From: a virus
Strand: one strand, 5' to 3'
Virus record (IMG/VR): IMGVR_UViG_3300045988_090863
Length of the DNA: 57,803 nt
Shown here: one piece after another, positions 55,795 through 56,231 of the stretch
How the letters are laid out: the number at the start of each line of letters is the position of its first letter
Position numbering within the stretch: position 1 is the first letter of the stretch
The notes under the pieces: model-generated
What the model saw: the letters and a program-made list of their open reading frames with translations, nothing else
What the model was told of the DNA's origin: nothing
The model's database searches: none
Position numbers and translations under genes: made by a program

Positions 55795-55875
55795 CTTTCC
55801 CCCTACACCCCCTATCTTTATACATATACAACATTATTATAATATATATAGTATATATAGTATAGTGTTTATGCT

Positions 55876-56231
55876 TTTGCTTAAGCAAATTACAACAATG
55901 CTATATTTGATTATCAGACTATTATAAAATTTTGCTTAGGCAAATTTATTTTGCGCCTTATTTTTTGCTTAAGCAAAACAAAGATAGATTTTTACTGATT
56001 ATCAGCTAATTACGTTTTTTTGCTTAGGCAAACTGTTTTGCTTAAGCAAATTGTAATGTTCCTAATACTGATTATCAGATATTTACAAAGTTTTGCTTAA
56101 GCAAAATACATATTTTAGTTAGTGAAATTACGGTGAAATATTTTGCTTAAGCAAATTAATATATATCTATCTTTGTTTTTCAATGAGTTACATAATTTTG
56201 CTTAGGCAAATATTATTTTTGCTTAAGCAAA
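55876..56231. repeat. Array of nine 14-bp palindromes TTTGCTTA(A/G)GCAAA with three interleaved TGATTATCAG palindromes
   Basis: Palindrome starts: 55876, 55931(G), 55964, 56019(G), 56037, 56092, 56142, 56197(G), 56218. TGATTATCAG at 55908, 55996 and 56069, each exactly 32 bp after the start of a TTAA-core copy. Confidence 0.9.

Follow-up and report, generated by a model that had tools for sequence, protein, structure and literature searches.

An array of phased dyad sites and IHF-like motifs between the lysogeny operon and the integrase gene of a Bacteroidales prophage family

Introduction

Between the terminator of the lysogeny operon and the stop codon of the tyrosine integrase gene (int) in the virus record IMGVR_UViG_3300045988_090863 lies an array of nine short palindromic (dyad) sites, which is the subject of this work. 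The record, a stretch of 57,803 nucleotides referred to below as the window and to whose positions the coordinates refer unless a related locus is named, is a temperate siphovirus-like genome. The sites are grouped in pairs around a motif that resembles the binding site of integration host factor (IHF), and the predicted architecture, i.e., dimer site-bend-dimer site, repeated and phased, is one in which we have high confidence. The reading that we tentatively favour is that the array is a cis-acting protein-binding array of the integrase/lysogeny end of a Bacteroidales prophage family, where it may serve as a regulatory or architectural block. The role of the array as an element of the integrase/lysogeny module is proposed with low confidence, from its position alone.

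In the favoured reading, each dyad would be occupied by a dimeric sequence-specific protein, and a Bacteroides host factor of the IHF/HU type would bend the module centre sharply, with the two dimers facing each other across a 55-bp micro-loop. Four modules and the extra sites, set at multiples of about 11 bp, might gather about 350 bp in a single cooperative nucleoprotein complex. Located on the 3' end and the 3' untranslated region (3' UTR) of int, between the convergent int and lysogeny transcripts, such a complex could act as a transcription barrier or control int expression.

Dyad sites and modules

Nine sites of the form TTTGCTTA(A/G)GCAAA were found in a search of the whole window, and all are confined to positions 55876-56231. 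The sequence TTTGCTTARGCAAA starts at 55876, 55931, 55964, 56019, 56037, 56092, 56142, 56197, and 56218, its only occurrences in the window, so that the nine coordinates and the confinement to one locus reported in the original prediction, which was made from the sequence without database searches, proved exact. The dyad-site search gave 15 strand-matches versus 0.01 expected, and none of 100 shuffled sequences scored as high. When the motif was relaxed to TTTGC-N4-GCAAA with one mismatch allowed, only three further hits were found elsewhere in the window, which is the chance level. Besides the repeats of a diversity-generating retroelement (DGR), the array is the sole multi-copy repeat cluster of the 57.7-kb genome. 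A generic repeat or a chance occurrence is excluded by the window search and by the genome-wide scans given below.

The repeat unit is a module of approximately 69-78 bp in which 41 bp separate two dyad sites, so that their starts are 55 bp apart; in general terms the dyad unit is (A)TTTTGC-N4-GCAAAA(T), two per module, 53-55 bp apart. The 55-bp pairing was detected four times by a repeat finder (55876/55931, 55964/56019, 56037/56092, and 56142/56197). The original prediction had stressed that variant copies lie 18-33 bp upstream of perfect ones; the coordinates are right, and the informative regularity is instead the fourfold 55-bp pairing. Module 1 occupies 55876-55944 (dyads at 55876-55889 and 55931-55944, IHF-like site at 55912-55924, TGATTATCAG starting at 55908), module 2 occupies 55964-56032 (dyads at 55964-55977 and 56019-56032, IHF-like site at 56000-56012), module 3 occupies 56037-56105 (dyads at 56037-56050 and 56092-56105, IHF-like site at 56073-56085), and module 4 occupies 56142-56210 (dyads at 56142-56155 and 56197-56210, with the degenerate IHF-like site TTTCAATGAGTTA at 56178-56190). 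A lone terminal dyad site at 56218-56231, 21 bp past the previous site, overlaps the last five int codons (LLKQK) and codes for the integrase end ...VLLKQK*. A sigma-70 promoter scan found none above shuffled sequences. The consensus of the Bacteroides -7 promoter box is TAnnTTTG, and as judged by eye this box fits just two of the nine dyad sites.

The motif at the module centre

The sequence TGATTATCAG is found at 55908, 55996, and 56069, in each case 32 bp past the start of a perfect dyad copy in modules 1-3 as had been stated earlier, and also at 26 (= 57774) and on the minus strand at 8216; the window search gave six matches versus 0.18 expected. The E. coli IHF consensus is WATCAR-N4-TTR, and TGATTATCAG constitutes the left part of a match to it at the module centres. 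The centre element is asymmetric, reading TATCAG-N4-TTA in all four TGATTATCAG copies of the array and the phage attachment site (attP). In module 4 the sequence TTTCAATGAGTTA stands at the same offset as the centres of modules 1-3 and agrees with eight of nine IHF-consensus positions; its variant TGTATTTCAATCATTTG recurs in one module of the related Bacteroides phage Versailles. Among 83 distinct modules collected from relatives, 82% match at least eight of the nine consensus positions at one fixed place, as compared with 15% when the spacers were shuffled. In the same set, a YTGA-N3-TCAR core is centred near the module midpoint, and the TTR flank may stand on either side of it.

The outer Y and R of the centre motif vary independently (TG 20, CG 15, TA 14, CA 12). 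Since the outer positions do not covary, the motif is more readily a protein site than a base-paired hairpin, and an RNA or single-stranded DNA hairpin at this place was rejected. The original prediction had regarded the element as an odd-length palindrome, CTGAT-T-ATCAG; given the lack of covariation and the conserved N4-TTR flank, an IHF-consensus-like bend site is the better description. Its broader proposal of dimer sites with a second factor at phased positions stands as regards the array, the 53-55-bp pairing, and the centre motif, all of which are kept in about 100 loci, but not as regards a second dimer at the centre. We infer from these patterns that the centre motif is the site of an IHF/HU-type bending factor. 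Recombination by the Bacteroides integrase IntDOT requires a host factor, for which E. coli IHF can substitute (PMC2817482).

Conservation of the array in relatives

Phage Versailles of B. caecimuris, with an integrase approximately 65% identical, carries nine TTTGC(T/C)TA(G/A)GCAAA sites at the same place, including three 54-bp pairs and two TGATTATCAG copies. No paper with the motif was found in the literature searched, and the region is not discussed in the Versailles paper. A paired-palindrome scan of viral contigs detected 65 loci, every one in this phage family, and in 65 of 65 the array has the lysogeny operon on one side and int on the other. A second scan, of one genome per species in 185,579 species, gave 32 loci; 30 belong to this prophage family, in hosts of Bacteroides, Prevotella, Segatella, Alloprevotella, Alistipes, Parabacteroides, Barnesiella, and Muribaculaceae, and two are unrelated tandem repeats. 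The same 14-mer was seen within longer tandem units, which are not this element, in an Oscillospiraceae metagenome-assembled genome (MAG) (L233, 3620-3700) and in a Fibrobacteria MAG (L234, 3930-4060). A generic Bacteroidota repeat, which the original prediction had named as the finding that would undo it, is not what these 30 of 32 loci represent, and the array is conserved at this position in Versailles, the 65 viral contigs, and the 30 Bacteroidales genomes, with almost no occurrence outside them.

Across about 100 related loci the sequence between the sites is unconserved while the spacing is kept, as had been noticed in the window. The number of dyads ranges from 3 to 12 across relatives. 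The most frequent spacing in 52 non-redundant arrays is 53-55 bp (101 cases), and 22-23 bp comes next; the best period of 221 spacings from 32 distinct arrays is 11.0 bp (R = 0.53), so the sites would be presented on one shared helical face. The usual site of the family is the imperfect TTTGCTTAGGCAAA (295 with a TTAG centre, 67 with CTAA, and 35 with TTAA); because TTAG centres prevail, the perfect palindrome of the window is a minority form. The half-site is kept in the variants TTTGATTAGGCAAA (L209, L183) and TTTGCTATAGCAAA (L217). Two loci, L171 (2850-3130) and L214 (2850-3180), have direct runs of half-sites, TTTGCTT and then AAGCAAA, that converge in steps of about 11 bp on a central full palindrome, suggesting that the binder can use single half-sites in either orientation.

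The position is conserved as well. The array always adjoins int in related loci, and the last dyad lies in a fixed register on the final int codons, with a 2-nt register to the int end in more than 25 of them. A late gene of the lysogeny operon encodes o83, a small helix-turn-helix (HTH) protein described below; where extra genes are inserted, e.g., in Versailles, they fall between o83 and the block formed by the terminator, a C-rich box, the array, and int. In distant relatives, whose o83 proteins are 55-58% identical, o83 and int abut and the array is missing. Many near-full-length contigs of sample 3300045988 (e.g., L005, L008, L154, L200, L215) stop only a few bases away from the array or from o83, and contig 072635 has array pieces at both ends. 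The array thus appears to break short-read assemblies and, as a consequence, would often be missing from database genomes. A cos or pac site was considered and found no support, the terminase genes being 17 kb off and the contig ends at the array or o83 being assembly breaks.

These data bear on an explanation at the RNA or topological level, in which hairpins of the int 3' UTR would stabilise or process mRNA, or the locus would be a BIME/RIP-like site for a host factor and gyrase. The array does have the int stop codon on one side and a terminator that is probably bidirectional on the other, two palindrome copies can pair (weak hairpin-type Rfam hits reflect such pairing), and a palindrome-IHF site-palindrome order past a terminator between convergent genes is the layout of E. 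coli RIP/BIME-1. The centre motif, however, shows no covariation, the strict 53-55-bp spacing and the 11-bp phasing are features of DNA geometry, and the direct half-site runs of L171 and L214 do not fit a hairpin model. Moreover, no family came near threshold in the Rfam scan, and the element is not dispersed in host genomes (32 loci in the 185,579 species genomes). We therefore regard this explanation as quite improbable.

Flanking sequences and the possibility of an origin

The array is bounded, as originally described, by the terminator of the lysogeny operon and the int stop, the last palindrome coding for LLKQK. The intrinsic terminator (55768-55791, plus strand) has a 10-pair stem followed by a T run and is flanked by A-rich sequence upstream and T-rich sequence downstream. 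It is probably bidirectional, in which case the array would fall within the 3' UTR of int. In all aligned relatives a hairpin and a T run are found ahead of a conserved C-rich box, which in the window is TTCTTTCCCCCTACACCCCCTATCTTTATACATATAC at 55793-55829 and whose consensus in an alignment of 45 non-identical relatives is TT.CCCCA.A CCCC.TAT.T. ATATA. In the form TTCTTTCCCCCACACCCCCTATTTCATATAC, the box was observed to be strongly conserved after the terminator in nearly all relatives.

A TA-rich tract follows at 55830-55874 (GC content about 17%) with three copies of TATAGTATA within 55838-55864; the GC content drops to 17% at 55820-55879, in agreement with the AT-rich, repeat-containing tract first noticed there. 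A TA-rich tract of 40-70 bp is present at the same place in all aligned relatives, and the C-rich box and the tract always stand ahead of the array. In about a dozen relatives a GC-rich inverted repeat (CGCGCGTGTGCGCATTATGCGCGTGCGCG) was also seen between the TA tract and the first site. The tract should melt readily and, were the locus an origin, could serve as its DNA-unwinding element.

A replication origin is the reading that we rank second, since an iteron-like cluster stands next to a TA-rich tract and there is no other candidate; we nevertheless hold it to be rather unlikely. The dyads would be iterons for the phage initiator, a host factor would bend the DNA, and the TA-rich tract would melt, as in lambda ori and plasmid iteron origins. 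Consistent with such a function are the uniqueness of the cluster (the DGR repeats aside), the lack of iterons within or near the replisome-organizer gene (45959-46828), the conserved low-GC tract always on the same side, the helically phased sites with IHF-like bend sites, and the change of copy number from 3 to 12 between relatives, a variation of the iteron kind. On the other hand, the array lies 9-10 kb from the replisome-organizer and DnaC-like loader (45304-46101) genes, inside the integration module, and iterons are normally direct repeats of 17-22 bp rather than paired 14-bp dyads. Distant relatives with the same int/o83 layout lack the array. The sites are also not specific to an initiator: the N-terminal half of the organizer is only 42-64% conserved and the loader of L057 differs (29% identity) while the sites are unchanged, which makes the organizer an unlikely binder of the dyads. 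Cumulative GC skew across the window tracks gene orientation only, with its minimum at the immunity region.

Integrase gene, attachment site, and tRNA-Arg

The int gene (56213-57487, minus strand) encodes a tyrosine integrase with arm-binding, SAM-like, and catalytic domains (PF13102 at 1e-11, PF00589, and weakly PF17293; phrog_216). An everted pair, GCAAA-N14-TTTGC, was noticed just upstream of int at 57526-57547 and is conserved, with equivalents in L068 and Versailles; read on the int strand it is TATATTTGC, which we take to be the likely Bacteroides -7 promoter box of int.

The crossover point was located from integrated relatives, found via an o83 homologue, in which the 5' half of a host tRNA begins directly after ...TTTAGGAAAC; the junctions were L071-L073 and 20 further distinct junction contexts. 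They place the attP core TTTAGGAAAC at 57750-57759, which is also 2-11, where the crossover region mimics the anticodon loop of tRNA-Arg(CCT). On sequence evidence, integration splits the host tRNA-Arg(CCT) within its anticodon loop, and the phage supplies its own gene copy: a complete phage-borne tRNA-Arg(CCT) gene (57597-57670, minus strand) replaces the host gene split by integration. The start of the window was seen to coincide with the attP core, as would fit a branch point of the assembly graph where excised and integrated forms coexist.

GTAGAAC pairs occur in the window solely at 63-80 and 57500-57517, on both sides of the core, and are likely to be the arm-type Int sites. The P-arm pair, GTAGAATATTTGTAGAAC at 57500-57517 (plus strand), is a putative arm-type site with two matches versus 0 expected, and Versailles and L068 share it. 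The IHF-like site of attP, TATCAGCCTTTTA at 57778-57790, also 30-42 (plus strand), falls between the core and the P' arm pair at 63-80. This IHF-like site, 28 bp past the start of the core, and the GTAGAAC pair at +62 were present in seven of seven distinct attP junctions, the other sequence differing. The fourth TGATTATCAG copy, which had been set 31 bp after the palindrome CCTAATGTTTAGG with coordinates that are correct, thereby finds another meaning, the pair being the attP core and its bend site.

Two further functions, arm sites of attP or a sink for the CI repressor, are very improbable, the least favoured of all readings considered. The array does lie directly downstream of int, as lambda attP does, and TTTGC motifs occur in the immunity region. 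As attP arm sites the array was nonetheless rejected: the crossover at 57750-57759 is on the far side of int, about 1.5 kb off, and the arm repeats are the GTAGAAC pairs. The array ends at 56231, outside the approximately 250 bp of the crossover expected of a lambda-type attP arm region, and has no GTAGAAC repeats. As for a repressor sink, suggested in the original prediction and now unlikely, relatives with non-homologous repressors (Versailles) keep identical sites, and no TTTGC-N4-GCAAA was found at the immunity region 53997-54182. The TTTGC motifs there (54039 and 54067) read TATATTTG on either strand, presumably the Bacteroides -7 box.

Candidate binding proteins and genome context

The best candidate for the dyad binder appears to be o83, with the ParB/KorB-like protein second. 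The lysogeny operon is short and headed by the S24 CI-like repressor gene (54183-54845); among its late genes is that of o83 (55357-55608, plus strand), an 83-amino-acid protein with an HTH resembling the CI N-terminal domain. The fold, predicted with high confidence (predicted local distance difference test score, pLDDT, 96.5), has five helices, and in both fold and sequence the protein comes closest to phage 186 CI and XRE regulators. With a mean identity of 80%, o83 is the best-conserved protein of the neighbourhood; it was found in every array-bearing locus that extends to it and is 62-94% identical among array-bearing loci. CI or Cro was ruled out as the binder, for repressor types differ among relatives such as Versailles with identical sites and the immunity region has no such site.

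Small HTH genes similar to o83 were also observed next to int across Bacteroidota phages (L076, L078, L149, L218, L219). In the Riemerella phage PJN03 the o83-like gene is directly upstream of int on the same strand and overlaps it, which is the classic xis-int layout; in other Bacteroidota phages the two genes are convergent. This placement suggests an integrase accessory or regulatory role for the o83-like gene.

The ParB/KorB-like protein (43697-44503, minus strand; 268 amino acids) has a ParB_N domain with the GERRYR motif and matches to HTH_ParB and KorB. The third-ranked reading, which we think less likely than an origin, is that the array is a loading site for this protein, i.e., a parS-like centromere or a silencing site, where the CTPase would load at the palindromes and the IHF-like bend would act as in P1 parS. 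In support of it, the HTH of the ParB-like protein is about 90% conserved; the gene is present in Versailles and, next to DnaC, in every checked array locus that extends past it, except L047 and L057; around nine short palindromes recall plasmid centromeres; and in L257, a relative with no array, ParB is likewise missing from the syntenic place. Against it, parB is 11.4 kb from the array and is flanked by no inverted repeats of at least 12 nt, and a phage that integrates has no need of a centromere. In the stretches of L047 and L057 that were read, arrays occur with other genes at the usual ParB place, though ParB may lie elsewhere in these genomes. No ParA-type ATPase was found in the Versailles annotation (1-50,000 of 58,097 bp) or among the scanned open reading frames (ORFs) of the window, all outside the structural-gene region. 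An equally good ParB target is a second palindrome family, TGTGTTT-N3-AAACACA, present at six scattered sites in the manner of KorB operators.

This second family occupies intergenic positions 5910, 24574, 24709, 30841, 38995, and 41492 (0.04 expected) and is also found in Versailles; dispersed as operators are, it may be the target of the ParB/KorB-like protein or of a late-gene regulator. The upstream early region of the genome encodes SbcC-like, RecT, and NinB proteins. The DGR occupies 2747-5572, with the reverse transcriptase gene at 2747-3877 (minus strand), the template repeat at 4021-4134, and the variable repeat at 4214-4327, which forms the C-terminus of a 454-amino-acid ORF (4208-5572, minus strand); all 11 of the differences between the two repeats are at coding-strand adenines.

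The integrase-module reading and its significance

A role in the integrase module is ranked first because the order terminator-box-TA tract-array-int-tRNA-attP is inherited as a unit, insertions fall on its far side, the bend site is common to the array and attP, and the int end is overlapped by the last dyad. Several observations weigh against it. Since the lysogeny operon is already closed by a plain terminator, there is no evident need for a barrier. The TA-rich tract and the sole iteron-like cluster suit an origin at least as well, and the true ParB-type protein of the phage must have a palindromic site somewhere. Homologues of o83 (55-58% identical) lie by int in L076, L218, and L219 without the array or any TTGC-N4-GCAA site, which indicates that o83 has no need of the array in those phages. 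When the recognition-helix residues of o83 were compared with the site variants TTAA, TATA, and TTTGA, no clean tracking was found.

Two readings without precedent are improbable. The array could be a remote partner of attP, acting as an enhancer-like or directionality element through the host bending factor and the HTH protein of the lysogeny operon, or it could be a roadblock over the int stop codon, which would leave int transcripts of the lysogen ending without a stop codon. Either would constitute a new mode of integrase control.

The array marks a prophage family spread across gut Bacteroidales, including Bacteroides, Prevotella, Segatella, Alistipes, Parabacteroides, and Muribaculaceae. 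Hardly any of the cis-acting DNA of Bacteroidales phages, be it for origins, centromeres, or integrase control, has been mapped. A defined 14-bp site combined with a bend site offers a handle for finding the proteins involved, including the poorly characterised host factor of Bacteroides tyrosine integrases. Versailles, which belongs to the family and resides as a prophage in B. caecimuris I48, is induced in vivo in the OMM12 mouse model, which makes the element genetically testable. Should the array be an origin or an integrase-control element, its recognition would aid in predicting induction and in building Bacteroides phage vectors.

Comparison with known systems

The array fails at least one defining feature of each known family that could be tested. 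The centre motif of the modules is the element that this phage family has between its attP core and the arm repeats, 28 bp from the core, which is where H' stands in the lambda attP intasome; in both cases a bend lets flanking proteins meet. The array itself, in contrast, is 1.5 kb away from the crossover, lacks GTAGAAC arm repeats, and has dyads as its flanking sites. Phage Mu has an operator/enhancer (O1-IHF-O2) that is likewise a cis element set at a distance, about 1 kb, from the recombination end; an IHF bend lies between its sites, which are bound by proteins of lysogeny and recombination. Mu, however, recombines by a transposase, and no enhancer of the Mu type is known for tyrosine integrases.

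The P1 parS site, with ParB boxes A and B around an IHF site, is similar in that partition-type sites flank an IHF bend and in that the phage has a ParB-family protein. P1 has one complex site beside parB together with ParA, whereas this integrating phage has four modules 11 kb off and no ParA that could be found. Like iteron origins that contain IHF sites (R6K gamma, pSC101, lambda ori), the array has repeated sites, an AT-rich neighbour, bending by a presumed host factor, and a variable copy number; its sites, though, are short paired dyads and are unlinked to an initiator gene, whose DNA-binding half varies.

In lambda cosB (R3-IHF I1-R2-R1), sites for a small HTH dimer are joined by an IHF bend; the resemblance extends to a neighbouring conserved GC-rich box, but the array is 17 kb from the terminase genes and nothing there points to genome ends. 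The E. coli RIP/RIB element (BIME-1) has the same module layout and likewise follows terminators between convergent genes. Whereas RIP elements are scattered repeats of the host, with GC-rich palindromes of about 35 bp, the array is one tandem cluster in one prophage family.

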